64,000 bases of DNA from Bacillota bacterium (GCA_023390655.1 JAEWCL010000020.1:3275-67274); one strand, 5' to 3'. Positions 15,938 to 36,710 are shown, counted from the first letter of the stretch. Notes: generated by a model from the letters alone, not told the origin. Program-made: numbers and translations.

Positions 15938-16042
15938 TGCGCCGCCCAATCATTGCCATCGTGCGCTTTTGGGAGGAAGGTATTTGTGGAAAGCGGTTTT
16001 ATAGTATAATGAATCTCGAATTCTAGGAATGCTGGTGCGTTT

Positions 16043-19000
16043 ATGTTTATTGCCGACTTTCATATCCACTCGAGCTATTCGAGAGCCACAAGCAGGGAAT
16101 GCGTGCCAGAGTCCCTCGATCTGTGGGCGCGCCGCAAAGGCCTTGGCCTGATTGGCACCGGAGATTTTACCCATCCCGCATGGCGCGCGGAACTACAGGA
16201 GAAACTGGCCCCTGCAGAAGAGGGGCTATATGTCCTAAAGGAGCCGTTCCGCAGGGAAGGCGCGGCGGAAAACGGGGATGTTACGCCCCGCTTCATACTT
16301 TCCGCCGAAATCAGCTCCATCTACAAAAAGAACGGAAAGGTGCGCAAGGTCCACAACCTGATTCTTCTGCCCAGCCTCGCGTATGCAGAGGGCCTGTCCC
16401 GCCGCCTGGAAGCCATCGGCAACCTACATTCCGACGGAAGGCCTATTTTGGGGCTGGACAGCAGGGACCTGCTGCAAATGACGCTTGACGTCTGCCCGGA
16501 GGCCATCTTTATCCCCGCTCACATCTGGACGCCCCATTTTTCCCTGTTTGGCGCATATTCGGGCTTTGACGATATTACGGAGTGTTTTGAGGAATTGACG
16601 GGCCATATCCATGCGCTTGAAACCGGGCTCTCCTCCGACCCGTCCATGAACTGGCGTCTTTCCATGCTGGACAAATTCAGCATGGTTTCAAATTCCGACG
16701 CCCATTCCCCGGCGAATCTTGCGCGGGAAGCCAACCTGTTTGATACCGAGCTTTCCTATGAGCATATTGCCCGGGCGCTAAAAAACCGGCATACCCAAGA
16801 ATTTTACGGCACGCTTGAGTTTTTTCCGGAGGAAGGCAAGTACCATTGTGACGGGCACCGGGCCTGCAAGGTCTGCATGCAGCCCATTGAAACAAAAGCG
16901 GTCTCCGGCGTGTGCCCCGTCTGCGGCGGCAGGCTCACCGTGGGCGTGTTGCACCGGGTGGAAGCGCTGGCCGACCGTGCGGAGGGCTTTGTGCCCCCGG
17001 ATGCGAAGCATTTTGAACGGCTTGTGCCGCTTCATGAGGTGGTCGCCGCTTCCATGGGGATGACGACCGCAAGCATAAAGGCAAAGGAACGGTACAAGCA
17101 TCTGCTTCGTACCATCGGGCCGGAGTTGTTCATCCTTCGCCAGGCGTCGCTTTCGGATATCAAGCAGGAAGGGGGCGCGCTCATCGCCGAAGGCATCTCG
17201 CGGTTGCGCTCCGGCAAGGTGGACATCCAGCCCGGATACGATGGGGAATACGGCAAAATCAAGCTTCTGGATAAAGCGGAGATCGAACTGATCTCCGGCC
17301 AGATGAGCCTTTTTGCCGGAGGAAGCGAGAAAAAAAGCCCCAAGCCCAAGGGCATGCGGGCACAGAAAGCGCCGGTACAGGAGAAGACCGCCCCGGCTCC
17401 GGAAGAAATCGCGCCGCACACAGCGGAAGCTGTGCGGCAAACGGATGCGCCTTATGGGCTGAACCGGGAGCAGTGGGAAGCGGTTTCTGCCAACGACCCC
17501 GCCATTGCCGTGATTGCCGGCCCCGGAACGGGCAAAACAAAAACGTTGGTCAGCCGCATCGCCTATTTGGTGGAGCAGTGCGGCGTGCCTCCCTGCGACA
17601 TTACCGCCGTTACCTTTACCAACAAGGCGGCGGGCGAAATGCGCGCCCGCCTCAGCGCGCATTTTGGAAGCAGGCAGGCCATAGACGGTGTCAATATTGG
17701 TACCTTCCACTCCATCTGCCTGCAGATATTGGCAAGGCAGCAGGGCAGAAAAGACATGCCCATCATCGATGAGGCGGATGCGCTCTCCGTCGTCAAGGAT
17801 ATCCTGCATACACTGAATCTAAAGAACGCACCCCGGGAGATTTTAAAGGGAATATCCTCCTTCAAGAACGGGCTGCAGGCAACGGAAGAGGGCACCCTTC
17901 CATCCGGCGTATTGGAACAATATCAGGCGCAGCTTATACAATATGGCGTTTTGGATTATGACGATATCCTTTTGGATACGCTTGCACTGTTTGAACGCGG
18001 GACGCAGGATGAACGTGAGGGCAAGCGCCTGTCTGCCCAATTTTCGCATATTCTGGTGGACGAGTTTCAGGATATTAACGCGCTCCAATACCGCCTGATT
18101 CGGGCGTGGAGCGCAGACAGCGCCGGGGTTTTCATCATCGGCGATCCGGATCAGGCCATCTATGGCTTCCGGGGCTCGGACCCCCGCTGCTTTAAGCGGT
18201 TTGTAGAAGATCATACCGGGCTCCGGCAGGTCATCCTGACGCAGAATTACCGCTCTACGCCTGAGATCATCCGTTGCGCGCAGGCGGTACTGCCGGAGAA
18301 GGATGGCATCCGGCATCCATTGGAGGCAAACAGGGAAAGCGGCAGGACTGTGCGCCTGCTGCATCTGGAGGATACGTTTTCCGAGGCGCTGTTCGTGGCG
18401 AAGGAGATCAACCGCATGGTCGGCGGGATGGATATGATCGACGTACACGGAGCGGTGAATGGGAACAAGAAAAACCCAACCGGGCAGCCAAAAGGGTTTT
18501 CCGATATCGCGGTATTGTACCGCACCAACCGCCAGGCCGATCTCTTGGAGCATTGCCTGCAAAAAGAGGGGATTCCCTATGTGGTCGCCGGGCGGGACGC
18601 GTTCCTGCTCGAGCCGGAGGTCCGTGAGGCAGCTGCATGCTTCCGGTTTTTGCTCAACCCGGAGGATATCGTTTCTTTGCGGAACTGCTTGAAGCATGCA
18701 GGCATCCGCGGCAGCGACCTTGTGCAGGTAATCGCGGGATATGCGGCGGCGGAAAAAAGCATATCCGCCCTGGAGGGCATCCTGAGCAGCATTTCCACGG
18801 AAAGCAGCCGCCCTTTTCAGGTACTGCTGGCGCGGTTCCGGACATTCGGCCCGCTTGTCCGCAGTGAAAAGCCGCAAAAGCTGATGGAGCGCTGGATGGA
18901 GGATGGGGGACTGTCTGCGTCCGGCTGCATGCAGATGCTGTTCAATACGTCCGTGATGTATGAGAATATGGCGTCGCTGCTGCATGCCCTCGTACTGGGG

Positions 19001-19342
19001 CGCGAAAGCGATCTCTTGAGAAGCGGCGGAAAAACATATACGCCGGACGCCGTGTCCCTTATGACGCTGCACGGGGCAAAGGGGCTGGAGTTTCCCGCCG
19101 TATTTCTGTGCGGCGTAACGGAGGAACTGATCCCGTTTACAAAGCGGGGGGCTTGCGACATTGCGGAAGAAAGGCGGCTTTTTTACGTAGGCATGACAAG
19201 GGCGAAGGAAGAACTGATTCTTTTATCTCCCCCAGCGCCCTCGCCGTTTCTTTTAAACCTTCCTGCTGAATCGCTTACTACAGGGCGCGTTCCTGCACAC
19301 AGGCAGGATACGTCCAGGCAGATCGGTTTTTTGAACAGTTGA
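16043..19342 (+). CDS. Fusion protein: Endonuclease Q-like PHP/Zn-finger nuclease domain (about aa 1-420) plus UvrD/PcrA superfamily-1 helicase (about aa 470-1099)
   Basis: N-terminal motifs: DFHIHSSYS, GTGDFTHPAW, SNSDAHSP, GKYHCDGH, CPVCGGRLTVGVLHRV and PGYDGEYGKI. Helicase motifs: AGPGTGKTKT (I), ILVDEFQDIN (II), QNYRSTPEI, TLHGAKGLEFPAVFL and RRLFYVGMTRAKEEL (VI). Confidence 0.85.
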   Translation: MFIADFHIHSSYSRATSRECVPESLDLWARRKGLGLIGTGDFTHPAWRAELQEKLAPAEEGLYVLKEPFRREGAAENGDVTPRFILSAEISSIYKKNGKVRKVHNLILLPSLAYAEGLSRRLEAIGNLHSDGRPILGLDSRDLLQMTLDVCPEAIFIPAHIWTPHFSLFGAYSGFDDITECFEELTGHIHALETGLSSDPSMNWRLSMLDKFSMVSNSDAHSPANLAREANLFDTELSYEHIARALKNRHTQEFYGTLEFFPEEGKYHCDGHRACKVCMQPIETKAVSGVCPVCGGRLTVGVLHRVEALADRAEGFVPPDAKHFERLVPLHEVVAASMGMTTASIKAKERYKHLLRTIGPELFILRQASLSDIKQEGGALIAEGISRLRSGKVDIQPGYDGEYGKIKLLDKAEIELISGQMSLFAGGSEKKSPKPKGMRAQKAPVQEKTAPAPEEIAPHTAEAVRQTDAPYGLNREQWEAVSANDPAIAVIAGPGTGKTKTLVSRIAYLVEQCGVPPCDITAVTFTNKAAGEMRARLSAHFGSRQAIDGVNIGTFHSICLQILARQQGRKDMPIIDEADALSVVKDILHTLNLKNAPREILKGISSFKNGLQATEEGTLPSGVLEQYQAQLIQYGVLDYDDILLDTLALFERGTQDEREGKRLSAQFSHILVDEFQDINALQYRLIRAWSADSAGVFIIGDPDQAIYGFRGSDPRCFKRFVEDHTGLRQVILTQNYRSTPEIIRCAQAVLPEKDGIRHPLEANRESGRTVRLLHLEDTFSEALFVAKEINRMVGGMDMIDVHGAVNGNKKNPTGQPKGFSDIAVLYRTNRQADLLEHCLQKEGIPYVVAGRDAFLLEPEVREAAACFRFLLNPEDIVSLRNCLKHAGIRGSDLVQVIAGYAAAEKSISALEGILSSISTESSRPFQVLLARFRTFGPLVRSEKPQKLMERWMEDGGLSASGCMQMLFNTSVMYENMASLLHALVLGRESDLLRSGGKTYTPDAVSLMTLHGAKGLEFPAVFLCGVTEELIPFTKRGACDIAEERRLFYVGMTRAKEELILLSPPAPSPFLLNLPAESLTTGRVPAHRQDTSRQIGFLNS

Positions 19343-19351
19343 CGTCAGCAA

Positions 19352-19383
19352 TAGGGGGCTGCCTCATCCGAGGCAGCCCCCTA
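19352..19383. terminator. Bidirectional terminator between the helicase fusion gene and the ABC exporter genes
   Basis: 14-bp stem TAGGGGGCTGCCTC / GAGGCAGCCCCCTA with loop ATCC. Confidence 0.8.
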
Positions 19384-19392
19384 TCAGTCGTG

Positions 19393-21282
19393 TTATTCAA
19401 GTTCAAATGCGCCGGTATAGAGCTGGTAATACTTGCCCTTCTCCCCGATCAGGTGCGCATGGCTGCCCCGTTCGATGATTCTGCCGTGTTCGAGCACCAT
19501 AATGACATCGGAATTTTGTACCGTGGAAAGGCGGTGCGCAATCACAAACACCGTGCGTCCCGCCATCAGCGCATCCATGCCGCGCTGCACGATGGCCTCG
19601 GTGCGCGTATCGATGGAGGAGGTCGCCTCGTCGAGGATCATTACCGGCGGGTCGGCAACCGCCGCGCGCGCGATGGCAATGAGCTGCCGCTGCCCCTGCG
19701 AAAGGTTGCTGCCGTTGCCCAAAAGCATGGTCTGATACCCATTGGGCAGCCTTGTGATGAAATCGTGCGCGCCCGCAAGCTCTGCCGCCGCCTCGCATTC
19801 CGCGTCCGTGGCGTCAAGCTTGCCGTAGCGGATATTGTCCATGACGGTGCCGGTAAACAGGTTCGTATCCTGGAGCACCATGCCGATGGCGCGGCGCAGG
19901 TCCGATTTGTGGATCTTGTTGATGTTGATGCCGTCGTAGCGTATCTTGCCGTCGGCAATGTCATAAAAGCGATTCAACAGGTTGGTGATGGTGGTCTTTC
20001 CCGCGCCTGTCGCGCCGACAAACGCCACCTTTTGCCCCGGCTCCGCGAACAGGGTGATGTTATGGAGTACCGGCTTATCCGCCTCGTAGCCGAAATCCAC
20101 CTCTTTGAGGCGCACGTCGCCCGCAAGCTTTGTGTAGCGCACCATGCCGTCGTCAAGCGGCTGCTTCCAGGCCCAAACACCTGTGCGCTCCGCACATTCT
20201 GTGAGCATGCCGTTCTCTTCGCTGACGTTAACAAGGGTCACAAAGCCATTGTCCTCCTCAGGCGCTTCATCGAGCACGGTGAAGATGCGGTCCGCACCCG
20301 CAAGGCCCATGATCACCGCGGTCACCTGCTGCGATACCTGGTTGATGTTGCCGGAGAACTGGCGCGTGATGTTCAAAAACGGCACAACGACGCTGATGCT
20401 GAAAACAAGCCCCGAAAGACTCAGGTTGTGCGCCTTTGTCAGAAGGAAGATTCCGCCCGCCATCGCGACCGTGACGTAGATCAGGTTGCCGATGTTCATG
20501 AGGATGGGGGGGAGGATGTTGGCAAATTTGTTAGCTTGCTCCGAATCGCGGAACAGCTCATCGTTGATGGCGTCAAAGCCCTCTTTGGCTTCTTCTTCGT
20601 GGCAAAACACCTTTACGACCTTCTGCCCGTTCATCATTTCCTGGACAAAACCCTCGGTCTTCCCCAGGGAGCGCTGCTGGCGCATAAAATACTTTGCGGA
20701 ATTGCCGCCCAGCTTTCTTACCACAGTCAGCATGAACGCCATGCCGCTCAACACGACGATGGTCATCCAGACGCTGAAATAGAGCATGATGCTCAAAAGC
20801 GTGAGCACCGTGACGGCCGAGACCAGAAGCTGCGGCATGCTCTGGGAAATCAGCTGCCGGAGCGTATCGATATCATTGGTATAGTGGCTCATGATGTCGC
20901 CGTGCGGATGGGTATCAAAAAAGCGGATGGGAAGGCCCTCCATCTTGTGGAACAGCCTTTCTCGCATCTTTTTGAGCGAGCCCTGCGTGATGACCGCCAT
21001 CGCGCGGTTGTAGGTGAACGACGACGCAAGCGAAACCACATACAGCCCTGCGAGTATGGAAACGAGACGCAGAATTTGCGGGCCGACATGCGCCCAGTCG
21101 CCTCCCTGGTTCTGTTCCAGCACCGCAATGACGTTCTGCATGAAAATGGAGGGGATGGAAGAAACCGCCGCCGTGAACACGATGCACAGGAGCACCAGCG
21201 GAAGCGCTGCGGGATAAAATTCAAACAGCATTTTCAAAAGCCGTTTCAAGGTTCCTTTTTTAAACATGGCGCCCTGCTTCAT
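19393..21282 (-). CDS. ABC exporter, fused permease/ATPase (heterodimer subunit 2, multidrug-type)
   Basis: Six-TM domain followed by Walker A GATGAGKTT, signature LSQGQRQL and Walker B VMILDEATS. 4-nt overlap with the upstream subunit gene. Confidence 0.88.
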   Translation of the reverse strand: MKQGAMFKKGTLKRLLKMLFEFYPAALPLVLLCIVFTAAVSSIPSIFMQNVIAVLEQNQGGDWAHVGPQILRLVSILAGLYVVSLASSFTYNRAMAVITQGSLKKMRERLFHKMEGLPIRFFDTHPHGDIMSHYTNDIDTLRQLISQSMPQLLVSAVTVLTLLSIMLYFSVWMTIVVLSGMAFMLTVVRKLGGNSAKYFMRQQRSLGKTEGFVQEMMNGQKVVKVFCHEEEAKEGFDAINDELFRDSEQANKFANILPPILMNIGNLIYVTVAMAGGIFLLTKAHNLSLSGLVFSISVVVPFLNITRQFSGNINQVSQQVTAVIMGLAGADRIFTVLDEAPEEDNGFVTLVNVSEENGMLTECAERTGVWAWKQPLDDGMVRYTKLAGDVRLKEVDFGYEADKPVLHNITLFAEPGQKVAFVGATGAGKTTITNLLNRFYDIADGKIRYDGININKIHKSDLRRAIGMVLQDTNLFTGTVMDNIRYGKLDATDAECEAAAELAGAHDFITRLPNGYQTMLLGNGSNLSQGQRQLIAIARAAVADPPVMILDEATSSIDTRTEAIVQRGMDALMAGRTVFVIAHRLSTVQNSDVIMVLEHGRIIERGSHAHLIGEKGKYYQLYTGAFELE

Positions 21283-23018
21283 TGCCGCCCACCTGCCTTG
21301 TTCTGAGAGTCGTATACTTCGCGGTAGATTTCGCTTGTTTTTAATAGCTCATCGTGCGTGCCCACAGCCACGATGCTCCCCTTATCCATCAGCACGATGC
21401 GGTCCGCGTCCTGCACGGAGGCGACGCGCTGCGCAATGATGATCTTGGTGGTTTCGGGGATATACTCGCGGAATGCCTTTCTTATATTCGCATCGGTCTG
21501 CGTATCGACGGCGCTGGTGGAATCGTCCAGTATGAGGATTTTCGGCTTTTTCAAAAGCGCGCGCGCGATGCACAGGCGCTGCTTCTGCCCGCCCGAAACA
21601 TTGGTGCCTCCCTGTTCGATGCGCGTATCGTAGCCGTCAGGGAACCGGCGGATGAAGTCGTCCGCCTGTGAAAGCCGGCAGGCTTCCTGCAGCTGCTCGT
21701 CGGTCGCCTGCGGGTTGCCCCAGCGCAGGTTTTCCTTGATGGTGCCAGAAAACAGGAGGTTATTCTGCAGCACCATCGAGACCTCGTTGCGCAGCGTCTC
21801 AATATCATAGGCGCGCACATCGAGCCCGCCTACCTTCACCACGCCCTCCGTTGCGTCATACAGGCGCGGAATCAACTGGACGAGAGAGGTCTTTGAAGAG
21901 CCCGTGCCCCCCAAAATGCCGATGGTTTCCCCGGAGCGGATGGCTAGGTCGATATTCTGGAGCGCCATCAGCTCCGCCCGCTCGGAATAGCGGAAGCTCA
22001 CGCCCGAAAACTCGATGGAGCCGTCCTTCACCTCGCGGACGGGGTGTTCGGGGTTCGTCAGCGTGCTCTTCTCATGCAGCACCTCCACGATGCGGTGCCC
22101 GGATTCGTCCGCGATGGTGATCAGCACGAACACCATGGAGAGCATCATCAGGCTCATCAGCGTTTGGAAGCTGTATACCATCAAAGAGGAAAGCTGGCCC
22201 ACGTTGAAGTTGAGCCCCTGCGTGGTGATGATGGTGTATGCGCCGAAGGTTAAAATGAACACCATGTTCACATACAGGCAAAACTGCATGATGGGGCTGT
22301 TGAACGCGAGGATTTTTTCGGCCCTTGTGAATTCCACGCGTACTTCTTCAGCGGCTTTTTCAAACTTCTGCTTTTCATAATCCTCACGCACGAAGGACTT
22401 CACCACGCGGATGCCCTGGATATTCTCCTGGATGGAGCTGTTGAGCGCATCGTATTTGCGGAACACCCTTCTAAAAATGGGGAATGCCTTGCGGATGATG
22501 AGGTAGAGCCCCACCGCGAGAACCGGTATCACCACCACGAAGATGAGCGCCAGCCTGCCGCCCATGATGAATGCCATGACGACGGCGAAAATAAGCATCA
22601 GCGGGCTTCTGATGGCCGTGCGGATGATCATCATGTACGCGTTCTGGACGTTGCTCACATCCGTCGTCAGCCTGGTGACGAGCGACGACGAGGAGAACCT
22701 GTCGATGTTCTCAAAGGAAAAGGACTGGATGCTGTAAAACATGTCCTTTCTCAGGTTGCGCGCAAAGCCGCTTGACGCAGTCGCGCACGCCGTGCCCGCA
22801 AGCCTGCCGAACACAAGTGAGACACTTGCCATCAGGAGAAGCAGCAGCCCGTATCGCAAAATGACGCCGATGCTGCAGCCCGCCTTGATCTGGTTGACGA
22901 GCTGGGCTGTGACGAATGGAATGATGCACTCGATCACAACCTCCATCGATACAAAAGCCGGCGCCAGAAGGGACGGCTTTTTATATTCCCGTATGCTTTT
23001 GATAAGTTCCTTCCACAT
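21279..23018 (-). CDS. ABC exporter, fused permease/ATPase (heterodimer subunit 1)
   Basis: TM domain followed by Walker A GGTGSSKTS, signature VSGGQKQRL and Walker B ILILDDSTSAVD. RBS AAAGAGGAG. Confidence 0.88.
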   Translation of the reverse strand: MWKELIKSIREYKKPSLLAPAFVSMEVVIECIIPFVTAQLVNQIKAGCSIGVILRYGLLLLLMASVSLVFGRLAGTACATASSGFARNLRKDMFYSIQSFSFENIDRFSSSSLVTRLTTDVSNVQNAYMMIIRTAIRSPLMLIFAVVMAFIMGGRLALIFVVVIPVLAVGLYLIIRKAFPIFRRVFRKYDALNSSIQENIQGIRVVKSFVREDYEKQKFEKAAEEVRVEFTRAEKILAFNSPIMQFCLYVNMVFILTFGAYTIITTQGLNFNVGQLSSLMVYSFQTLMSLMMLSMVFVLITIADESGHRIVEVLHEKSTLTNPEHPVREVKDGSIEFSGVSFRYSERAELMALQNIDLAIRSGETIGILGGTGSSKTSLVQLIPRLYDATEGVVKVGGLDVRAYDIETLRNEVSMVLQNNLLFSGTIKENLRWGNPQATDEQLQEACRLSQADDFIRRFPDGYDTRIEQGGTNVSGGQKQRLCIARALLKKPKILILDDSTSAVDTQTDANIRKAFREYIPETTKIIIAQRVASVQDADRIVLMDKGSIVAVGTHDELLKTSEIYREVYDSQNKAGGRQ

Positions 23019-25220: not shown

Positions 25221-26981
25221 TTAGACCCCCTGCGACAGCTTTGCGTCGCCATTGATAAATTGAATGAGCAGGAAGAGATCCGAAACGCTCACCTTGCCGT
25301 CATGGTCAACATCCGCCGCGCGCAGACGCGCGCCGGTGAGCGGCGTTTCGTGCAGCAGATGGCTTTGCAGCGCAAAGACATCGCTTTCGCCTATTTCGCC
25401 GTTGCCGTCAAGGTCGCCGAACAATACGATGGGCAGGTCAAAAAACGCCGTGCCTCCGTCATAGGTAACGCGTACAAAGAAACCCGTACACACGTTTCCG
25501 GTTGCCTTAGCGCCTTTTAGGTTGACCACGCTGAGCTTCCCATCCGAGGAGAGATCTTGAAGCAAAGCGTCCGCCGATGTTCCAACAGGGATTCCGCTGA
25601 TGCCCGATTGTGTTATCTTGTAGGAATTGCTGCTGATTCTTGGCGCGCTCTCATACGTGCCGACGGTGATGAGCGTTGTATCCCGATAATAAAATGAAAG
25701 AATATCGGTATATGGCTGGCCTGCCCGCGCCCGCTCCTGCGCTCCGCGCTGTGAAAGGCCCACGCCGTGGCCATAGCGCCGCTCGGTCAAATACCAGCCG
25801 GCGTATTCCGTACCATAGGCGCGATAGGCCCCCCGCTCCGCGCCGCGCATCCTCAGAGAAGTCTTCTTTGCCCCGATACGGCCCAAGGTGTTTGTAAAGC
25901 TGCCGAATTTGAGTTCCCCAAGCGTGAGCGTTACGGTAAGCTGCCCGGTTTGCTGCTGTCCGGCTTCTTCATAGCCTACCATAAGCGTCACATCCGCCTC
26001 GGCATAGCAGCGGTTCGGCGCACTGTAAACAGGGGCTTTGGGCATGACCTCCACTGTGGAGAGCAGGGATACCTCCCGCCCCGCCGCATCATATGCCGCG
26101 CGTTCGAGCGCAAGCAGCACAAAAGGATCCATGAGCTTTACTGTGTTTTCGGTAAAGGTTTCGGGAATGAAGGATTTTTCCTCGAGGCTTGAGGCGTTGA
26201 GCAGGTCGAACGGATCGTCTGCATGGGCATAATAGGGCAGGTCGTTCTCCCATACGTTGCCCGTTTTTTCCGTCTGCCCGCCGTTTGAGGCGGAATAATA
26301 CGCCTCAATGATCTCCCCATTATAGGTGAGCACCTCGCCGCGCGTTGCGTCTACCGCGGCAATCGCCCGGGTATTTCTGCTGGCATAGCCCCGGTATACC
26401 TGATCCTGCGAGGTGTCCAGCAAATCATACGCGCGGCTTGCGTACCGGGAACACCTTGCCACGGCATACCCGCGCGCACAGACCGCCTGTGCCTTCAATG
26501 CGTCAATGGGAAAGAGGTTGCTCATTTCATGGGGAACGACGCCGTATAGATATTGCTCGATCGGAAGTGTGTTGATGGCGCGCACCGCACCCTCATATAC
26601 GTCGAATGTCATGTTGCCAAGGTAGGTGCAGGTACCGTACTCGGCATTTTTCAGGCGGATATAGTCCGTCCGCTCGCCATAGCTGCCGCTTAAAAGCGTA
26701 ATAGAGGCGGCGGTGATGGTTTTAGCGCCAATCCGCAGGGAAATTCGGCCGCCCGCGGCCGAGATCTGCAGCTCGTCATTGCCAACGGCAAGGCCGGGCT
26801 CTTCTTTTAAAGTAAATGTACCTACGGGCGTAAAGGAAACGGTCTGCTGTTTTCCAAGCGAGATGCGTACGCGCACATCCGTAGAAAACACCGCCGCCCG
26901 CGCGGGCGCTGCTGCGCACACAAGCAGCAGCGCAAGGCATAGAACCACGAGGTACCTGTTTTTATACATGTTTCGCCTCAT
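25221..26981 (-). CDS. Secreted SpoIID/LytB-domain protein with a C-terminal type-I dockerin
   Basis: SpoIID motifs: GVVPHEMSNLFPIDALKAQAVCARGYAV, YYSASNGGQTE and GHGVGLSQRGAQ. Dockerin duplicated EF-hand-like segments: GDLDGNGEIGESDVFALQSHL and ADVDHDGKVSVSDLFLLIQFI. Confidence 0.85.
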   Translation of the reverse strand: MRRNMYKNRYLVVLCLALLLVCAAAPARAAVFSTDVRVRISLGKQQTVSFTPVGTFTLKEEPGLAVGNDELQISAAGGRISLRIGAKTITAASITLLSGSYGERTDYIRLKNAEYGTCTYLGNMTFDVYEGAVRAINTLPIEQYLYGVVPHEMSNLFPIDALKAQAVCARGYAVARCSRYASRAYDLLDTSQDQVYRGYASRNTRAIAAVDATRGEVLTYNGEIIEAYYSASNGGQTEKTGNVWENDLPYYAHADDPFDLLNASSLEEKSFIPETFTENTVKLMDPFVLLALERAAYDAAGREVSLLSTVEVMPKAPVYSAPNRCYAEADVTLMVGYEEAGQQQTGQLTVTLTLGELKFGSFTNTLGRIGAKKTSLRMRGAERGAYRAYGTEYAGWYLTERRYGHGVGLSQRGAQERARAGQPYTDILSFYYRDTTLITVGTYESAPRISSNSYKITQSGISGIPVGTSADALLQDLSSDGKLSVVNLKGAKATGNVCTGFFVRVTYDGGTAFFDLPIVLFGDLDGNGEIGESDVFALQSHLLHETPLTGARLRAADVDHDGKVSVSDLFLLIQFINGDAKLSQGV

Positions 26982-29343: not shown

Positions 29344-32300
29344 ATGAGAACCGGAATAACAAATAAAATTCTGGCACTTGTTTTGGCCTGCGTTTTGGCG
29401 ATCTCGGGACTACCGGCATTGACAGTACAGGCCGCAGAGCTACAAATGGGTGAATCCACCGGATACGCCACACCCAGTTTTGCTGATTCGGCAGAGGATG
29501 TGGAGGAACCGGAAGAAGAGTTTACCGAGAATAATGACGGCGACTTTGAGGAAACGGCTGAAAAAGTTGTAATTAAAAAAGGGAAAGTATCAGACAAAGA
29601 AAATGACTTGACTGAAAATGCACCCCTCTTAAATACTCCGAAGAAGAATAGAGCAATCGCATTTGGCGGGGGTATGGGGATACAGTCCTCCGCAGTGGCG
29701 GGCGATGCCAACGACGGCATAGACTTTACGGCGCTTATGGCGGGGAATGTGTATTATGGAACATATCGACACGCAACCGCTTTTAGCAATACACAGTATG
29801 CCAGAAACCTCGATGATAACGATAATGATTTAGGAATCACCTATGACAGTGAAAAAAGACCTGTGCTCTGGCGTGTCATGGGCGAAGAAACCGCCGGAAC
29901 GATGACATTGTTAAGCGAGTACGCAGTGGATGGGTATTATTTCTGCCATGAAAAGGAGGCCCCTACAGCCAATCAGTGGGAGTATTCCGACTTGCGAAAA
30001 TGGCTGAACACACCTGCCTATGAAGGCAATTCCGGTGATGGAGATGATGGGGAGTACGGCTTTCTTCACAGCAGCAAAAGCGGCTTTACGGCTGCGGAGC
30101 TGGGGAATCCAATTATAACCGCATCTGTAAACACGACGACTTATGATTACAGGACAGAGGAGAAAGGCGCTACCCAAGCAACACAGGATCGATTCTATAT
30201 ACCCTGGGGAATGTACAGTAACAAGGAGCAGACAGCCAACGTGGGGAAGGTCTGGTGGGGGGCCGACGATGTACCGGAAAGTACATGCGGGATATCAGAT
30301 TCAGATAAGATTGCGAAACTAAAAGGAGGAACGCCTGTTCACTCCTGGCTGCGTTCGCTTGACACATATGACACCAACTACGCACTGATGATTGTCGTTG
30401 TCGACGGCGGAGACGAATACTCCCCCGGCGAAGTCATCAGCGGCTATGTGCGCGCCGCCTTCGGCGTCCGCCCCGCGTTTCAACTCAATCAGTCGTCAGT
30501 TCTCTTCGCCTCTAAAATCGCGGAGGATGCGAACACAGCCAACGGTGAAACGGAGAAGGCTGCCGGTTATTATTCAACCGGCGAAGACGGTCGCGAGAAG
30601 TACAAACTGACGATATTGAACACTGGTGTGAAATTGAACAGCCTGATGGGGCCGCTCGGCCCTTTGAACAGCGGCGTAACCCTGACCGTAGTCCCCGGCG
30701 GTACGCTGGATTTGGCCGGCGTGGTTAGCGGCGGCGCGGACAAGCTGGTGTATAAAATTGTGCAGGATGTCGATGGAACCAGAAGCATTGTCGGCTACGG
30801 CGCGGGGAACGCCACCAGCTTGACAGTAAACGGTAAGGCTAACGTAACAGACGATGCCAATCTGACCGTTGGCGGCGACTACACCTTGTATGTGTGGGCG
30901 CAGAAGGATAACGACCACAACTCCCACGAGGGCAGCGAGCCTATGTACTTTGAGCTGGAGGTGGGGACGCCTGCCGGCCCCCATACCGTCATCTTTGAAC
31001 TCGATGGCGGCACCCGAACAGGCGGCGGCGATCTGGAGCAGATCGTCCCGGACGGCGGCGCGGCGACAGCGCCCACCGTCACCCGCGACGGTTACACCTT
31101 CGACGGCTGGGACAAGAGCTTTAGCAACGTCACATCTGATCTGACCGTGACGGCCCAGTGGAGCAACAACACAACGCCAACCCCGTCCTCCACCAGCGAC
31201 AGGGACGGGAACAACGGCAATATATCCGTTTATGGCATCAATGTGCCTTACTCCATTCACAGCAGCAGTGGTGTCATGACCATCGAGCTTACCACAACTC
31301 TTTTGGATAAGATTGTGACAGCAGCCAATAAAAATAAGACCATTGCCATCAATGCAGGTAACCGCGTAGGACTGAAAGAACTGGTCGTCAGCTTCCCGCC
31401 ATTGTGGCTTGCAGAGCATACGGATATCACGATTCCGGTGCAGTCCGGTATCGGGGGCATCACACTCAGTCACAATCTTGCAAAGCAATTCCCCAATCAG
31501 GGAGCTACCGCAACTGTCTCTTTGAAAACAGGCAGCCTGATTTTCTCCGCAAGGCAAAGCGGCAAAACAGTAACATGGAATGATACCAATGCACTGGTGG
31601 CGATCTACATGCCGTATACGCCTCCTACGAATAGCAACACAAATGCCGTTGTCCTATATAACAAAACTACTGGTGTAGTGGTTGCCCACAGCTTTTATTC
31701 CGGCGGGAAGGTCTACGCGGCGGTCGGCGGCCCCGGCATCTACGATGCAAAAGTTGGTGCAGGTAACTTTACCGATACACAGGGGCATTGGGCGATAGGA
31801 GACATTATCTTCGCATCCAGCCATGGGCTCATTGCCGGCACCAGTGCCACGGCCTTTTCACCGGATGCGGCAATTACCCGCGCCGATTTTATTGTGGCGT
31901 TGGGTAAGCTCTCCAGCGCAGATGTAAGCAAGTACGAACAAAGCAGCTTTACCGATGTGGCAAACGACAGTCCCGCAATGCCCTATATCGAGTGGGCGGC
32001 GGCAAACAAAATCGTGCAGGGTATCGGCAATCACCGGTTCGGTCCCACTCAGGCAATTACCCGTGAGCAGATGGCGGTGATGTTGACATCCTATGCCAAC
32101 GCTACCGGCCAGACCTTGCCGAAGGTTCGCACGGCCAACACCTTCGCGGACGGCGGCAACATATCTGCGTGGGCGAAGGAGGCGGTCACAGCCGTTCAGC
32201 AGGCGGATATCATGACAGGCAAGACCGGCAATGTGTTCGCGCCCCAAGCCAGCGCCACCCGCGCCGAAGCCAGCGCCATCCTGCGCAGATTTGCGGAGTC

Positions 32301-32562
32301 CACTGTGAATGGTGAAAAAGCCTGGGTACAAACCGGCGAAGGCAAGTGGATGTACATCGGCAGCGATTATCTGCCCCGCAAGGGCTGGCTGGCAATTGCG
32401 AACTCCGATACAAAATATTACCTTGACACCAACGGCTTAATGGTAACCGGTAAATGGCTTCAACTCGACAGCAAATGGCATTACTTCTACGACAACGGTA
32501 AAATGGCGAAAAATACCGCTGTGGAAGGCTATGAAATCGATGAATACGGTGTAAGAAACTAA
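29344..32562 (+). CDS. Large secreted surface protein (1072 aa) with a Listeria-Bacteroides-type repeat, three SLH domains and C-terminal cell-wall-binding (choline-binding-like) repeats
   Basis: Signal peptide ending TVQAAE. GYTFDGWDKSFSNVTSDLTVTAQW. SLH repeats starting FTDTQGHWA, FTDVANDSPA and FADGGNISAWA. C-terminal GWLAIANSDTKYYLDTNGLMVTGKWLQLDSKWHYFYDNGKM. Confidence 0.85.
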   Translation: MRTGITNKILALVLACVLAISGLPALTVQAAELQMGESTGYATPSFADSAEDVEEPEEEFTENNDGDFEETAEKVVIKKGKVSDKENDLTENAPLLNTPKKNRAIAFGGGMGIQSSAVAGDANDGIDFTALMAGNVYYGTYRHATAFSNTQYARNLDDNDNDLGITYDSEKRPVLWRVMGEETAGTMTLLSEYAVDGYYFCHEKEAPTANQWEYSDLRKWLNTPAYEGNSGDGDDGEYGFLHSSKSGFTAAELGNPIITASVNTTTYDYRTEEKGATQATQDRFYIPWGMYSNKEQTANVGKVWWGADDVPESTCGISDSDKIAKLKGGTPVHSWLRSLDTYDTNYALMIVVVDGGDEYSPGEVISGYVRAAFGVRPAFQLNQSSVLFASKIAEDANTANGETEKAAGYYSTGEDGREKYKLTILNTGVKLNSLMGPLGPLNSGVTLTVVPGGTLDLAGVVSGGADKLVYKIVQDVDGTRSIVGYGAGNATSLTVNGKANVTDDANLTVGGDYTLYVWAQKDNDHNSHEGSEPMYFELEVGTPAGPHTVIFELDGGTRTGGGDLEQIVPDGGAATAPTVTRDGYTFDGWDKSFSNVTSDLTVTAQWSNNTTPTPSSTSDRDGNNGNISVYGINVPYSIHSSSGVMTIELTTTLLDKIVTAANKNKTIAINAGNRVGLKELVVSFPPLWLAEHTDITIPVQSGIGGITLSHNLAKQFPNQGATATVSLKTGSLIFSARQSGKTVTWNDTNALVAIYMPYTPPTNSNTNAVVLYNKTTGVVVAHSFYSGGKVYAAVGGPGIYDAKVGAGNFTDTQGHWAIGDIIFASSHGLIAGTSATAFSPDAAITRADFIVALGKLSSADVSKYEQSSFTDVANDSPAMPYIEWAAANKIVQGIGNHRFGPTQAITREQMAVMLTSYANATGQTLPKVRTANTFADGGNISAWAKEAVTAVQQADIMTGKTGNVFAPQASATRAEASAILRRFAESTVNGEKAWVQTGEGKWMYIGSDYLPRKGWLAIANSDTKYYLDTNGLMVTGKWLQLDSKWHYFYDNGKMAKNTAVEGYEIDEYGVRN

Positions 32563-32847: not shown

Positions 32848-32939
32848 TGGCGGAGAAGGAGGGATTTGAACCCTCGCGCCAGTTACCCCAGCCTACTCCC
32901 TTAGCAGGGGAGCCCCTTGAGCCACTTGGGTACTTCTCC
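32848..32939 (-). tRNA. tRNA-Ser (anticodon GCT), with long variable arm and encoded CCA
   Basis: The reverse complement folds as a cloverleaf: acceptor GGAGAAG/CTTCTCC, anticodon stem CTCCC/GGGAG with loop CTGCTAA, and T-arm GAGGG-TTCAAAT-CCCTC. Confidence 0.93.
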
Positions 32940-32961
32940 AGGCCTATAAAATTGTGGCGAT

Positions 32962-33050
32962 TGGCGGAGAGAGAGGGATTCGAACCCCCGGTGCCTTGCG
33001 GCATCACTGGTTTTCAAGACCAGCTCCATAAACCACTCGGACATCTCTCC
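32962..33050 (-). tRNA. tRNA-Ser (anticodon TGA), with long variable arm and encoded CCA
   Basis: Reverse complement: acceptor GGAGAGA/TCTCTCC, anticodon stem CTGGT/ACCAG with loop CTTGAAA, and T-loop TTCGAAT. Confidence 0.93.
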
Positions 33051-34573: not shown

Positions 34574-35452
34574 ATGGCTATCTTTGAAGGCTCCGGCGTT
34601 GCCATCATTACCCCATTCCACGGGAATGGAATTGATTTTGGTGTATTTGAAAAATTGATTGAGCGTCAGATAAAAGGCAAAACGAATGCAATCATCGTTT
34701 GTGGGACCACGGGCGAGGCGTCCACTATGAGCGCGGAAGAGAAGCGCGCTGCGATCGAGTTTTGCGTCAAACAGGTCAACGGTCGCGTGCCGGTGATTGC
34801 GGGTACGGGCGGCAACAATACGGCAAACGTGGTGCGGGACAGTAAGGCCGCGGAAGAGCTTGGCGCGGACGGCCTCCTGATTGTAACGCCGTACTACAAC
34901 AAAACCACGCAGGCGGGGCTTGTCGCGCACTACGCGGCGGTTGCAGAAGCCGTCTCACTTCCTATTATTGTTTATAATGTGCCCGGCCGTACAGGCTTAA
35001 ATGTGCTGCCTGCGACGATGAAGCAGCTGATGGCATACAAGAACATCGTTGCCATTAAGGAGGCAAGCGGGAACATTGAGCAGATCGTAAACCTGGCCGC
35101 CCTATGTCCGGCGCTTGACATCTATTCCGGCAATGATGACCATGTGCTGCCGCTGCTCGCGCTTGGCGCAAAGGGCGTGATCTCCACCATCGCAAACGTC
35201 ATCCCGGAAGACATGCACGAGCTGTGCGCCGCGTTCTTCCGCGGGGATGTGGAAGCTTCGCGCGCGCTGCAGTTCAAGGTTCTTTCCATCTGGAAGGCGG
35301 CATTTTGCGAGGTGAACCCCATTCCCATAAAGACCATGTGCGCGATGCTTGGCTGGTGTGAGGGGACGTTACGGCTCCCGCTTTGCCCGCCCAGCGAGAC
35401 AAACCGCGCGGCAATGGAAACTGCGCTCAAAGAATACGGATTGCTTTCTTAA
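34574..35452 (+). CDS. dapA: 4-hydroxy-tetrahydrodipicolinate synthase
   Basis: GSGVAIITPF, VCGTTGEASTMS, TPYYNK and AIKEASGN (Schiff-base Lys). Start at ATG 34574, behind AAAGGAGGGG. Confidence 0.92.
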   Translation: MAIFEGSGVAIITPFHGNGIDFGVFEKLIERQIKGKTNAIIVCGTTGEASTMSAEEKRAAIEFCVKQVNGRVPVIAGTGGNNTANVVRDSKAAEELGADGLLIVTPYYNKTTQAGLVAHYAAVAEAVSLPIIVYNVPGRTGLNVLPATMKQLMAYKNIVAIKEASGNIEQIVNLAALCPALDIYSGNDDHVLPLLALGAKGVISTIANVIPEDMHELCAAFFRGDVEASRALQFKVLSIWKAAFCEVNPIPIKTMCAMLGWCEGTLRLPLCPPSETNRAAMETALKEYGLLS

Positions 35453-35486
35453 AGAATATCAGCGAAAGCAGGCAACAGGTGAAACT

Positions 35487-36710
35487 ATGATTAAGGTGAT
35501 CATCAACGGCGCATGCGGCCAAATGGGCCGCACCATCATGCGTCTTTGCAAGCAACATAACAACGATTTCCAGGTGGTTGCGGGGGTGGCGACCTATCAG
35601 TGCCCGGAGGCGGAGGGCGTCCCCATCGTCAACGATATTATGAAGGCGCCCGAAGGCGCCGATGTGGTGATCGATTTCTCACGCCCCGCAGCGCTTCCCA
35701 GGCTTGTGCAGTATTGCCAGACTAATAAAATGCGCCTGATTATCGGCACCACGGGCTTGAGCGAGAACGACAGGCTCTCCTTGGAGCGGGCGTCCGCGAA
35801 AATCCCCATATTCTTAAGCGGCAACATGTCGCTTGGCGTCAACCTGCAGATTGAGCTGATTAAAAAAGCCGCTGCGGCGCTTGGCGACGCATACGACATT
35901 GAAATTATCGAAAAGCATCATAACCTCAAGGTGGATGCGCCCAGCGGTACGGCCCTGATGCTGGCGGACGCTGTGAGCACGCAGTTCCCCTCCGGCAAGG
36001 AATATGTGTTTGGCCGCCATACGAAGGACGTCAGGCGCGCCAAAAAAGAAATCGGCCTGCATTCCATCCGCGGCGGTACGGTGGTAGGGGAGCATGAGGT
36101 GGAATTCCTCGGTCAGGATGAAATCGTCACCATTTCCCACAAGGCGTATTCCAAGCAAGTGTTTGGCATTGGCGCGCTGCGCGCTGCACAGTACCTCATG
36201 CACAAGCAGCCTGGCCTCTACGACATGCACGATATCGTGACCGAGAAGGACGTACTTTCCCACCTGTATACGGATGACGATCAGGCGGTGATTACCGTAA
36301 GTTCCCTTCCCAACGAGCCGGGCGTATTAAGCCATATTTTCGGCACCATTGCGCGCAGCAATGTATTTGTGGATATGATCAGCGTTACCGTGCCGGGTTC
36401 TGTCTCCGCCAGCGTCAGCTTTTCGTTGCCGAAATCCCAGCTGGCGACCGCCATCAATGCGCTTAAAACCCTGCGGCCGCTCTATATGGGGATGGATATC
36501 CACGCGCTCGACAACATCACGAAACTGACGGTAGAAGGCCCCGGCATGGCGGTGCGCCATGGCGTTGCAGGGCAGCTCTTCACAGTGCTTTCAGAAGCGA
36601 ATGTCAGCATTGAGCTTGTGACGACCAGTGAAACCAAGATCGCCTGCTGCATCCGGAACAGCGATGTTTCCACAGCGCTTGCGGTGATCGCAAAGCAGTT
36701 TGAGCTGTAA
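35487..36710 (+). CDS. dapB: 4-hydroxy-tetrahydrodipicolinate reductase fused to two C-terminal aspartokinase-type ACT domains (407 aa)
   Basis: DapB motifs: INGACGQMGR and EIIEKHHNLKVDAPSGTA. C-terminal about 140 aa: SSLPNEPGVLSHIFGTIARSNVFVDMIS ... VEGPGMAVRHGVAGQLFTVLSEANVSIELVTTSETKIACCI. Confidence 0.85.
   Translation: MIKVIINGACGQMGRTIMRLCKQHNNDFQVVAGVATYQCPEAEGVPIVNDIMKAPEGADVVIDFSRPAALPRLVQYCQTNKMRLIIGTTGLSENDRLSLERASAKIPIFLSGNMSLGVNLQIELIKKAAAALGDAYDIEIIEKHHNLKVDAPSGTALMLADAVSTQFPSGKEYVFGRHTKDVRRAKKEIGLHSIRGGTVVGEHEVEFLGQDEIVTISHKAYSKQVFGIGALRAAQYLMHKQPGLYDMHDIVTEKDVLSHLYTDDDQAVITVSSLPNEPGVLSHIFGTIARSNVFVDMISVTVPGSVSASVSFSLPKSQLATAINALKTLRPLYMGMDIHALDNITKLTVEGPGMAVRHGVAGQLFTVLSEANVSIELVTTSETKIACCIRNSDVSTALAVIAKQFEL

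Follow-up and report, generated by a model that had tools for sequence, protein, structure and literature searches.

An Endonuclease Q–UvrD-type helicase fusion with predicted sliding-clamp-binding motifs on the chromosome of a Bacillota bacterium, a candidate initiator of excision repair

Organization of the Locus

The window analyzed in this study is a 64,000-nucleotide stretch of DNA from a Bacillota bacterium (GCA_023390655.1, JAEWCL010000020.1:3275-67274). Translation of the window demonstrated a complete gene on the forward strand (16043..19342), which runs from an ATG start to its stop codon without interruption across 3300 nt and encodes a 1099-aa protein composed of an Endonuclease Q (EndoQ) module and a UvrD/PcrA-type helicase. 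The gene is bordered by a DUF554 gene and by ABC exporter genes, and the wider surroundings are those of a core chromosome, with asd, dapB, cysS, tRNA-Ser, sporulation genes, and ABC transporters. A TATAAT hexamer (16005..16010, forward strand) lies 33 nt 5′ of the ATG, within the 105-bp interval that follows the DUF554 gene; identified by direct reading of the sequence, it is weak evidence for a possible promoter of the gene's own, and the promoter scan made no call at this position. Between the fusion gene and the convergent ABC exporter gene sits a 13-bp GC-rich hairpin, AGGGGGCTGCCTC-atcc-GAGGCAGCCCCCT (19354..19383), also read directly, which is likely a transcription stop. No T-run follows the hairpin, which is why the consensus terminator scan passed over it.

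The N-Terminal Module

[quoted passage not shown] A profile search covered TIGR00375 from end to end (2–374 of 374; E value, 1.7e-48) with 165.9 bits, which does not reach the curated NCBIfam cutoff of 326.6. The EndoQ of P. furiosus (PfuEndoQ; 5zb8/7k30) was matched by window residues 4–411 (E value, 9e-45), up to PfuEndoQ residue 385 of 400, and the predicted structure of the module matched 5zb8 with a TM (target) of 0.76 in Foldseek. Fragments covering the N-terminal part of close relatives are named “endonuclease Q family protein” by NCBI, and the module shares 29% identity with a homologue from Brevibacillus that carries the annotation EndoQ family protein.

Conservation was assessed in 125 diverse family members, each representing a cluster at 50% identity. 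The metal ligands of PfuEndoQ are listed as His8, His10, Glu76, His84, His139, and Asp193 (and His195) (PMC5961232), and by alignment they correspond to H7, H9, E89, H104, H160, D219, and H221 of the window protein. These residues are invariant in the family, barring one gapped row at H7 and H9. The deaminated-base pocket of PfuEndoQ (His139, Thr142, Glu167, Gly169, Leu170, Ser171, Asn191, and Asp193) is matched throughout by H160, T163, E193, G195, L196, S197, N217, and D219, all of them invariant except N217, which is kept in 114 members. The sole difference in the pocket is at Leu168 of PfuEndoQ, a main-chain contact only, which is Thr194 in the window protein. At the position of Trp144, the proposed wedge residue of PfuEndoQ, the window protein has His165; 93 of the 125 members have Trp there.

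The putative zinc knuckle, H272-x2-C275 … C291-x2-C294 (16856..16924, forward strand), was assigned by alignment to C249/C252/C268/C271 of PfuEndoQ. The original prediction had read a zinc finger in the string CPVCGGRLTVGVLHRV, which is indeed present at residues 291–306; the predicted ligands are corrected here to H272, C275, C291, and C294, an HCCC set rather than the archaeal C4. C275, C291, and C294 are each found in all 125 members and H272 in 123, with C278 variable, so that a family-wide HCCC site in place of C4 is plausible.

The remaining EndoQ strings that had been predicted were all found in the translation: DFHIHSSYS (5–13), GTGDFTHPAW (38–47), SNSDAHSP (216–223), GKYHCDGH (265–272), and PGYDGEYGKI (397–406). 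With the EndoQ-specific residues present and both TIGR00375 and PfuEndoQ matched end to end, it is fully supported that the N-terminal domain is a genuine EndoQ rather than a generic PHP phosphoesterase. From the conservation of the pocket and active site, the module would be expected to cleave 5′ of dU, dI, dX, or AP sites. It shares the three-domain fold, the metal ligands, and the lesion-pocket residues with the known EndoQs (P. furiosus, T. kodakarensis, M. acetivorans, and the B. pumilus/B. subtilis homologues), but it differs from PfuEndoQ in overall sequence (about 30% identity), in the putative zinc site, and at the wedge position. Moreover, where the archaeal protein ends, the window protein continues through a linker into about 630 helicase residues.

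The Helicase Module and Linker

The low-complexity linker expected after the nuclease was located in the translation as a Lys/Pro/Ala-rich stretch at about residues 430–455, within a segment modelled as disordered (residues 425–468; 17315..17446, forward strand; AlphaFold2 pLDDT <50). Across the family, the spacing from the EndoQ module to the helicase Q motif is 31–125 aa (median, 64) and is rich in A/P/E/S/G/K.

A complete SF1A helicase core of the UvrD/PcrA type follows in the same ORF, as had been predicted (residues 473–1062; 17459..19228, forward strand). Pfam analysis identified UvrD-helicase (PF00580; 220 bits) and UvrD_C (PF13361; 157 bits), both above cutoffs, and PcrA 1pjr was matched across its residues 12–649 (E value, 3.7e-80). 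Domains 1A, 1B, 2A, and 2B and motifs Q, I, Ia, II, III, IV, V, and VI are all present, including the predicted strings GPGTGKT (493–499), DEFQD (673–677), and VGMTRAKEEL (1049–1058). Q477, K498, D673, and R737 are kept in all 125 members, E674 and R1053 in 123, and R710 in 122; the least conserved part of the family is the 2B region (about 851–1000). Structure prediction, one of the checks proposed at the outset, gave TM (target) values of 0.69–0.70 for the core against PcrA and UvrD. The model as a whole is of moderate confidence (pLDDT, 70; pTM, 0.50), and the docking of the domains cannot be read reliably from it.

The core therefore resembles PcrA, UvrD, and Rep (1pjr, 3pjr, and 2is6) in its motifs and its four subdomains but shares only about 30% identity with them, and the NCBIfam equivalog cutoffs were missed for PcrA (354.7 vs. 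911.2 bits), Rep (311.7 vs. 951), and UvrD (292–298 vs. 965–1144). Judged by sequence, the helicase half is a subfamily distinct from the PcrA, UvrD, and Rep orthologues. The Tudor-like RNA polymerase–interaction domain of PcrA/UvrD is absent, the alignment ending at PcrA residue 649 of 724; after motif VI, the window protein has only 41 residues, ending in a clamp motif. Instead of the Tudor-like domain, it has the N-terminal nuclease and clamp motifs. Because the helicase has no RNA polymerase–binding domain, it is plausible that the EndoQ module and the clamp motifs direct it to its targets.

Clamp-Binding-Type Motifs

Two motifs of the β-clamp-binding type were identified, Q420-M-S-L-F424 at the end of the EndoQ module (17300..17314, forward strand) and Q1093-I-G-F-L1097 at the C terminus (19319..19333, forward strand). 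In the clamp consensus Q-phi-x-L-F, positions 1, 4, and 5 weigh most for binding (bioRxiv 10.64898/2026.05.27.728225), and the motifs of the family fit this consensus. The internal motif stands out amid an otherwise unconserved linker, with Q420 in 109, L/F423 in 117, and F/L424 in 108 of the 125 members, and its pattern occurs in 97 of them against a background of 3% per 25-residue segment. The pattern Qxx[LFMI][FLWYM] was counted within the last 25 residues of 113 members, in 75 of which it lies at the very C terminus. QLSLF is the commonest C-terminal form and QIGFL a degenerate one; the closest relatives have QISFL, making QI[GS]FL a clade-specific variant. Both motifs occur together in 88 members, and the 3% background applies to the C-terminal pattern as well.

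Binding to and stimulation by PCNA through a C-terminal PIP box have been demonstrated experimentally for archaeal EndoQ, and bacterial EndoQ homologs carry QL[SD]LF where archaea have the PIP box (PMC4858679 and Suppl. Fig. S1). The internal motif corresponds in position to the clamp motif found at the C terminus of the short bacterial EndoQs in the same figure. QMSLF and QIGFL are thus predicted to be sliding-clamp-binding motifs, which are typical of replication and repair proteins. Relatives that have lost the helicase are also without clamp motifs, and the EndoQ module is therefore evidently able to work without either.

Distribution and Stability of the Fusion

The proposed survey of the combined EndoQ and UvrD architecture revealed a widespread chromosomal fusion. 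Among the nearest relatives of the window EndoQ module, most of which are Clostridia, it is more common than any other form, and it also occurs in Negativicutes. In-frame orthologues of 1030–1234 aa were found in about 60 of the 80 closest species-level genomes. The PF27218 (MJ0043_C) + PF00580 + PF13361 architecture was found in more than 120 clusters that are 57–80% identical to the window protein, the nearest at 80%, and 124 of the best 150 representatives of clusters at 50% identity are 1000–1260 aa long. Isolate genomes with the fusion include those of Anaerotruncus massiliensis, Neglectibacter timonensis, Mediterraneibacter hominis, Neomoorella stamsii, and Methylomusa anaerophila. The identical 1099-aa protein was read on five contigs.

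Separation of the halves was also observed. They are adjacent in different frames in four further genomes of the 80. The loci with adjacent out-of-frame or split halves are L019, L032, L057, L085, and P0080, as well as P0041, after which comes the gene for a separate 472-aa helicase. Within the clade, loss of the helicase has occurred repeatedly. Pairwise identities of the EndoQ and helicase halves are correlated (r = 0.60 over 7750 pairs). On these sequence comparisons, EndoQ–UvrD is an old and stable fusion whose halves are co-inherited.

The rarity implied by the original prediction did not hold. Bacterial “EndoQ homologs” of ~950–1250 aa with C-terminal clamp motifs were tabulated by Shiraishi et al. 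(2016, Sci Rep; PMC4858679 Suppl. Fig. S1), and fusion-length EndoQ homologs are listed in many other phyla in the literature. The window protein shares their length class and the QLSLF-type C-terminal motif, shows no difference in kind, and is a member of this already catalogued long family. It is named “UvrD-helicase domain-containing protein” by NCBI and [quoted passage not shown] in one source. In the literature searched, no biochemical characterisation or measured activity of any fused member was found.

Genomic Context

No conserved neighbour gene was found across 80 loci, where the biggest neighbour cluster occurs in six. Among the genes directly beside orthologues, those seen most often include YaaA (three), Ogt (two), and an HhH-GPD glycosylase (two); a WYL regulator lies on one side of a standalone relative and an HhH-GPD glycosylase on the other. 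In the survey of these loci, neither a flap nuclease nor a polymerase was linked to the fusion gene as a partner, and no defence-island context was found around it in the window or at the 80 loci. Matches to the gene numbered zero in 50,697 phage records and one in 72,556 plasmids. In the PADLOC analysis of 105 immediate neighbours, no single model was matched by more than two proteins, and helicase-type models (BrxH, DpdF, and DrmD) account for several of the hits. The EndoQ half matched no PADLOC model, and the helicase half matched GajB models at 249 bits.

Alternative Explanations

Since the halves are split or lie adjacent in different frames in a few genomes, the ORF could be regarded as neighbouring endoQ and uvrD-like genes merged by misassembly, sequencing error, or ORF calling. 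The uninterrupted 3300-nt frame, the identical protein on five contigs, the in-frame fusion in about 60 independent species genomes, isolates included, and the conservation of the linker and both clamp motifs as features of the fusion leave this artefact with a negligible probability; it was rejected, and the single real ORF that had been predicted stands. UvrD-family helicase–nuclease fusions are mostly end-resection enzymes, and the helicase half shows a weaker resemblance to AddA and RecB, as would suit a helicase-nuclease that processes ends for double-strand-break repair with the PHP/EndoQ-like domain as a general nuclease. Such an enzyme is very unlikely, given that the lesion pocket (H160, T163, E193, G195, L196, and S197) is invariant, the top matches are PcrA, UvrD, and Rep rather than AddA or RecB, and no AddB/RecC-like subunit adjoins the gene. 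A less remote alternative, though still an unlikely one, is a repair enzyme whose helicase half excises no strand and instead serves as an ATP-driven translocase, stripping the tightly bound EndoQ module or other proteins from the nicked product for turnover or delivering the nuclease from the clamp. Published reports describe UvrD-family monomers that translocate processively on ssDNA but must be activated before they unwind (PMC13238157; PMC13365976) and, for mycobacterial UvrD1 in nucleotide excision repair, a requirement for ATP hydrolysis and not for unwinding (PMC11975281); the 2B regulatory domain is also the least conserved part of the family. On the other side, every helicase motif is conserved, including those coupling ATP hydrolysis to DNA, and the fold match to DNA-bound PcrA and UvrD spans the whole core, and no sequence feature tells a translocase from a helicase.

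The original prediction had also offered an anti-phage or anti-plasmid effector, by analogy with nuclease-helicase immunity proteins. In such a scheme, EndoQ would nick invading DNA with uracil, hypoxanthine, or other non-canonical bases (e.g., that of PBS1/PBS2-type dU phages) and the helicase would unwind and destroy it. This proposal is consistent with the GajB matches, although these are expected of UvrD-like helicases, with the repeated loss of the helicase, and with CBASS-type genes within a few kb of two homologues (TIR-SAVED, L002; SMODS, L006); according to a review, the authors of the B. pumilus EndoQ study suggested a possible antiviral role for bacterial EndoQ (PMC8307549). Like Gabija GajB and the nuclease-helicase immunity proteins, the fusion has a UvrD-like core, but it lacks an adjacent GajA (OLD/TOPRIM), its nuclease half matches no defence model, its score for PcrA (354.7 bits) exceeds that for GajB, and none of the 80 loci has a GajA-like or other conserved partner. 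Its absence from the 50,697 phage records, its single relative among 72,556 plasmids, the sparse PADLOC matches among immediate neighbours, the lack of a defence island, the core housekeeping context in the window, the co-inheritance of the two halves, and clamp motifs typical of replication and repair proteins all argue in the same direction, making an effector very unlikely. A dual-use enzyme, whose real advantage would be the restriction of invading uracil- or hypoxanthine-containing DNA (dU-DNA phages or DNA deaminated by interbacterial toxins), is just as unlikely, and context and distribution bear against it indirectly. If it were true, the clamp motifs would target replicating foreign DNA and the protein would be a single-protein, base-composition-sensing immune nuclease-helicase.

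Proposed Role in Excision Repair

Repair is the best-supported reading because the active sites are conserved family-wide, clamp motifs are present, the context is that of the core chromosome, and repair genes are occasional neighbours. Several observations count against it: the characterised EndoQs, that of P. furiosus included, are only distant relatives of the window module; the TIGR00375 score is below cutoff; the wedge position holds His165; QIGFL is degenerate; some relatives lack the helicase and the motifs; no flap nuclease or polymerase is linked; and the AlphaFold confidence is moderate. The original prediction of a nick-and-unwind enzyme is retained as an inferred function, but its description as a one-protein pathway was overstated, because a flap nuclease or 5′ exonuclease, a polymerase, and a ligase would still be required.

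The original EndoQ paper put forward a branch of the pathway with removal of the incised segment by a helicase (PMC4357722). A comparable covalent union of a repair helicase with an enzyme module recognising uracil in DNA is found in E. coli Lhr (PMC10953399), which has no sequence relationship to the fusion; Lhr joins an SF2 helicase to a C-terminal base-removing glycosylase, whereas the fusion joins an N-terminal backbone-cutting endonuclease to an SF1A helicase.

For the fusion enzyme, we infer the following scheme with regard to its lesion specificity, its clamp binding, the strand onto which the helicase loads, and the steps that come afterwards. The two motifs would recruit the enzyme to β-sliding clamps on DNA, mirroring the archaeal EndoQ that is recruited and stimulated by PCNA through its PIP box. 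The EndoQ module would flip a deaminated base (uracil, hypoxanthine, or xanthine) or an abasic site into its pocket and incise, and the 3′→5′ SF1A helicase, held on its flexible linker, would load at the nick, most plausibly tracking along the undamaged strand. The lesion-bearing 5′ end would be peeled off, perhaps with displacement of the nuclease from its product, and a 5′ flap nuclease or exonuclease, polymerase, and ligase would complete the patch.

In both nucleotide excision repair and mismatch repair, UvrD strips away the incised strand once the nick has been made. The EndoQ–UvrD protein would, in our assessment, probably serve its hosts as a chromosomally inherited housekeeping enzyme, a clamp-tethered incise-and-unwind initiator of an alternative excision repair of deaminated and abasic bases.

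The fusion gene and its surroundings

Translation of the fusion gene (16043..19342, +) gave one open frame of 1099 codons without interruption, beginning at an ATG. All 10 motif strings listed in the original prediction were found in the translation at the expected places. The start codon is well placed, because the N-terminus, MFIADFHIHS, coincides with those of the homologues to which it was compared. A gap of 105 bp separates the gene from the preceding DUF554 membrane-protein gene, and a TATAAT hexamer was read from the sequence 33 nt upstream of the ATG. Downstream, a 13-bp GC-rich hairpin (19354-19383) lies ahead of a convergent ABC-exporter gene pair. A 655-aa ORF with a TTG start (19339..21306, +) has a 4-nt overlap with the fusion gene at its stop codon and might be taken for a co-transcribed gene. 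It was rejected, being without a Pfam match and an antisense shadow of the ABC exporter gene at 19393-21282 (-), which carries ABC_membrane and ABC_tran domains (Pfam).

The 64 kb of the window are ordinary chromosomal DNA from a spore-forming Bacillota bacterium, with SpoIIE and SpoIID domains, asd, dapB, cysS, SLH and dockerin proteins, and ABC transporters. No second UvrD-like gene was found within it. The sole RNA genes detected by Rfam and tRNA scans were two tRNA-Ser genes far from the fusion locus, which form a tandem pair at 32848-33050 (-) with anticodons GCT and TGA. Several other products of the window were also recorded. A 586-aa protein (25221-26981, -) carries both a SpoIID domain (stage II sporulation, lytic transglycosylase-type) and, at its C-terminus, a type I dockerin; an enzyme of the sporulation cell wall is thus unusually combined with a module for cellulosome anchoring. 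In a 453-aa product (35349-36710, +), the dihydrodipicolinate reductase domains DapB_N and DapB_C (residues 48-296) precede two ACT domains (315-451); this may reflect either fusion to a regulatory domain or a crude ORF call that joined two genes. Two large surface proteins were also present, one of 1072 aa (29344-32562, +) with three SLH domains and Listeria-Bacteroides and choline-binding-type repeats, and one of 914 aa (52780-55524, +) with GLUG and InlB-B-repeat domains.

Reality and distribution of the fusion

The identical protein was present on five contigs, the longest of 740 kb. Together with in-frame fusions in the genomes of other species, this excluded misassembly or a gene-call artefact as the origin of the fusion. 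When the full protein was searched against a collection of 5.8 billion proteins, the same architecture was observed in all 120 clusters listed (1069-1181 aa, 57-80% identity), the nearest at 80% identity. These clusters came from Clostridia, Peptococcaceae, Pelotomaculum, Syntrophomonas, Oscillospiraceae, and Negativicutes (Acetonema, Methylomusa, Lucifera, and Sporomusaceae). The database name for most of them was "UvrD-helicase domain-containing protein," and one was named [quoted passage not shown]

Relatives of the EndoQ module were found in at least 592 stretches when one genome per GTDB species was searched, and the best 80 of these were surveyed as loci. In approximately 60 of the 80, the helicase followed EndoQ in frame, giving proteins of 1030-1234 aa; these loci included a Treponema and a Gemmatimonadetes MAG. 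The other loci comprised four with the halves adjacent and out of frame, three cut by contig ends, and 11 encoding standalone EndoQs of 406-424 aa. An HMMER scan of 1.84 billion cluster representatives with the EndoQ module retrieved 1063 clusters at E ≤ 1e-30, and 124 of the best 150 were 1000-1260 aa long. These 124 representatives and the window protein constitute the 125 family members compared below.

The nearest relatives of the standalone EndoQs among the best 80 loci were mostly fused proteins, with 67-81% identity. On the basis of these sequence relationships, this placement indicates that the helicase was lost secondarily and repeatedly in this neighborhood. Over 7750 pairs, the pairwise identities of the two halves were correlated (r = 0.60), in line with an old fusion whose parts are inherited together. 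The window locus is an ordinary member of a large and phylogenetically broad family.

Adjacent halves that were split or out of frame were observed at loci L019, L032, L057, and L085, at L003 (5001-8110), and at L006/L007 (5001-7022). Among these cases, a separate UvrD-like gene of 472 aa comes after the homologue P0041 (459 aa, linker included), and two independent assemblies agree on the stop codon in P0080. Some of these cases may be sequencing errors (L006 has other broken genes), and others may be real gene fission or decay.

EndoQ module

Residues 4-406 covered the TIGR00375 profile end to end (E value, 1.7e-48), and the module matched residues 5-385 of the 400 residues of crystallized Pyrococcus furiosus EndoQ (PfuEndoQ; E value, 9e-45). 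An AlphaFold2 model of the window protein, built with 61 homologues (mean pLDDT, 70), superposed on the PfuEndoQ structure (PDB 5zb8) with a TM score of 0.76. Catalytic and lesion-discriminating residues were mapped from Miyazono et al. (2018; PMC5961232) and a review (PMC8307549). All seven metal-site residues (H7, H9, E89, H104, H160, D219, and H221) and all side-chain pocket residues (T163, E193, G195, L196, S197, and N217) were retained in the window protein. Apart from one gapped row at H7/H9, these residues were invariant in the 125 members, save N217 (114/125).

The putative zinc site (16856-16924; residues 272-294) is of the H-C-C-C type, with H272 in 123 and C275, C291, and C294 in all 125 members, whereas PfuEndoQ has a C4 site in which a Cys occupies the position of His272. 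The proposed wedge residue of PfuEndoQ, Trp144, is replaced by His165 in the window protein, but is Trp in 93 of the 125 relatives. A generic PHP esterase without EndoQ-specific residues, the alternative against which the original prediction set its assignment, was ruled out by the presence of the pocket residues together with the zinc and helical domains.

Helicase half and linker

The complete UvrD-type helicase recognized in the original prediction was supported by three comparisons. Residues 473-1062 matched Pfam PF00580 (220 bits) and PF13361 (157 bits), aligned with PcrA (1pjr) across its residues 12-649 (E value, 3.7e-80), and, in the AlphaFold2 model, resembled DNA-bound PcrA and UvrD with Foldseek TM scores of 0.69-0.70. 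This region is a complete SF1A UvrD-family helicase. It failed the equivalog cutoffs for PcrA, UvrD, and Rep, and it lacks the C-terminal RNA-polymerase-binding domain of PcrA/UvrD; it therefore belongs to a separate subfamily and is not the PcrA of the cell.

The Q-motif Gln, Walker-A Lys, motif II Asp, and motif IV Arg were conserved in all 125 members, the motif II Glu and motif VI Arg in 123 each, and the motif III Arg in 122. The variable parts of the family were the helicase 2B domain and the linker. The conservation of both active sites points to purifying selection on both predicted enzymatic activities. Linker residues 425-468 were disordered in the AlphaFold2 prediction, and the distance from the EndoQ module to the helicase varied from 31 to 125 aa among the 125 members. 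The model confirmed both folds, at moderate confidence (pTM 0.50) and with no usable information on inter-domain docking.

Clamp-binding-type motifs

Directly after the EndoQ module, the otherwise unconserved linker contains the motif G-Q-M-S-L-F (residues 419-424), in which Q was found in 109, L/F in 117, and F/L in 108 of the 125 members. A second motif is located at the extreme C-terminus, as QIGFL-NS in the window protein (QIGFL, 1093-1097); its closest relatives have QISFL, and QLSLF is the most frequent form across the family. This motif was present in 113 of the 125 members and formed the last residues in 75 of these. Both motifs occurred together in 88 members, and the background of the pattern elsewhere in these proteins was 3% per 25-residue window. 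The bacterial β-clamp-binding motif is Q-φ-x-L-F (QL[SD]LF). Its most important positions are 1, 4, and 5, and Bacillus subtilis examples occur in PolC (QLSLF), DnaE (QMGLF), and MutS (QLSFF) (bioRxiv 10.64898/2026.05.27.728225). By their sequences, the motifs of the fusion family fit this pattern and are putative clamp-binding peptides.

Archaeal EndoQ binds and is stimulated by PCNA via a C-terminal PIP box, and a clamp-binding consensus in bacterial EndoQ homologues was remarked in the same study (Shiraishi et al., 2016; PMC4858679), so this consensus is not new. In its Supplementary Figure S1, the motif is placed at approximately 401-464 in short and 941-1244 in long bacterial homologues, the latter from Deltaproteobacteria, Bacteroidetes, Cloacimonetes, Chloroflexi, Actinobacteria, Verrucomicrobia, Myxococcales, Alphaproteobacteria, Spirochaetes, and one Clostridiales bacterium. 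The position of the C-terminal motif in the short EndoQs corresponds to that of the internal motif in the fusion; as far as we saw, that long forms keep both motifs is apparently not stated there. The short EndoQs of other phyla listed in the literature end in such a motif. In contrast, the Clostridial EndoQs that were shortened secondarily and whose relatives are fused (L046, L055, L064-L067, L078, L080, L081, L086, and L087) have lost both motifs along with the helicase.

Genomic context and proposed function

All-against-all clustering of neighbor proteins from the 80 species loci revealed no conserved operon partner, the largest cluster covering only 6 loci, and such a partner was thereby ruled out. 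The 105 immediate neighbors of fused genes represented 99 Pfam families, the commonest being the peroxide-stress protein YaaA (3), O6-methylguanine methyltransferase (2), HhH-GPD glycosylase (2), and DEAD-box helicase (2). A standalone 421-aa EndoQ (P0096, 117 member sequences; L004/L005, 4015-6970) is directly flanked by genes for a WYL/PafC-type transcription regulator and an HhH-GPD DNA glycosylase; the three share one strand and look like a small base-damage repair cluster. CBASS-type genes were noted within a few kb of two fusion or EndoQ homologues, a TIR-SAVED effector (L002, 1-446) and an SMODS/AGS_C cyclase (L006, 7530-8867); no recurrence of such proximity was found in the 80-locus survey.

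UvrD-family enzymes translocate 3'→5' on single-stranded DNA, and starting from a nick they clear away the incised strand during nucleotide excision repair and mismatch repair. EndoQ cuts 5' of dU, dI, dX, and AP sites, leaving 3'-OH and 5'-phosphate ends (PMC4357722). In the window protein, the active site and lesion pocket of EndoQ and the SF1A motor are all intact, a flexible tether connects the two modules, and two peptides of the clamp-binding type are present. We propose that the clamp would concentrate the enzyme on DNA, the EndoQ module would nick 5' of the lesion, and the tethered motor would load at the nick. Because nicking would leave the lesion on the 5' end of the downstream fragment, its removal would require the motor to track 3'→5' on the intact strand, displacing the damaged strand as a 5' flap, and a 5' nuclease, polymerase, and ligase could then complete the patch. 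The motor may also free the nuclease from its product. In essence, this mechanism would hard-wire into one polypeptide the helicase branch that the original EndoQ paper (PMC4357722) had sketched for the pathway. It is not the complete one-protein repair pathway of the original prediction, since a 5' nuclease, a polymerase, and a ligase would still be needed.

A motor acting as a translocase only is inseparable by sequence from one with a true helicase role. An end-resection role like that of AddA/RecB does not fit a protein with an invariant lesion pocket and no partner subunit. The anti-phage or anti-plasmid effector offered as the alternative in the original prediction draws generic support only, from GajB-model matches, which are expected anyway for UvrD-like helicases, and from published speculation on bacterial EndoQ and phages. 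The genomic context and distribution of the fusion and its clamp motifs count against this reading. Pfam and PADLOC scans of the 105 immediate neighbors showed no defense-island enrichment, the PADLOC matches being sparse and mostly to generic helicases, which ruled out a defense-island context. Carriage by mobile elements was likewise ruled out, since tblastn with the EndoQ module found nothing in 50,697 phage records and, among 72,556 plasmids, matched a single 733-kb Brevibacillus replicon.

Significance of the fusion family

The family is present in public databases, and the group that discovered EndoQ had already listed its long members in 2016 (PMC4858679). It was probably formalized in the classification of Shiraishi et al. 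(2017; Biosci Biotechnol Biochem, doi 10.1080/09168451.2016.1277946), as PMC5961232 quotes an EndoQ "family 3" defined "by domain organization." No paper describing or testing the EndoQ-UvrD fusion as such was found in the searchable literature. The existence of the fusion would not surprise a specialist.

The naming of the full-length proteins only as "UvrD-helicase domain-containing protein" hides a lesion-specific nuclease, and surveys of base-damage repair in Clostridia and other anaerobes may undercount the fusion for this reason. The steps after EndoQ nicking are unsettled even in archaea, for which strand displacement with Fen1 or helicase removal of the incised segment has been proposed. 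The permanent joining of a nickase to a UvrD-type helicase and clamp-binding peptides across a large bacterial family is natural genetic evidence that a clamp-coupled route leads from the nick to unwinding, and it offers a convenient single-polypeptide system in which to reconstitute this route.
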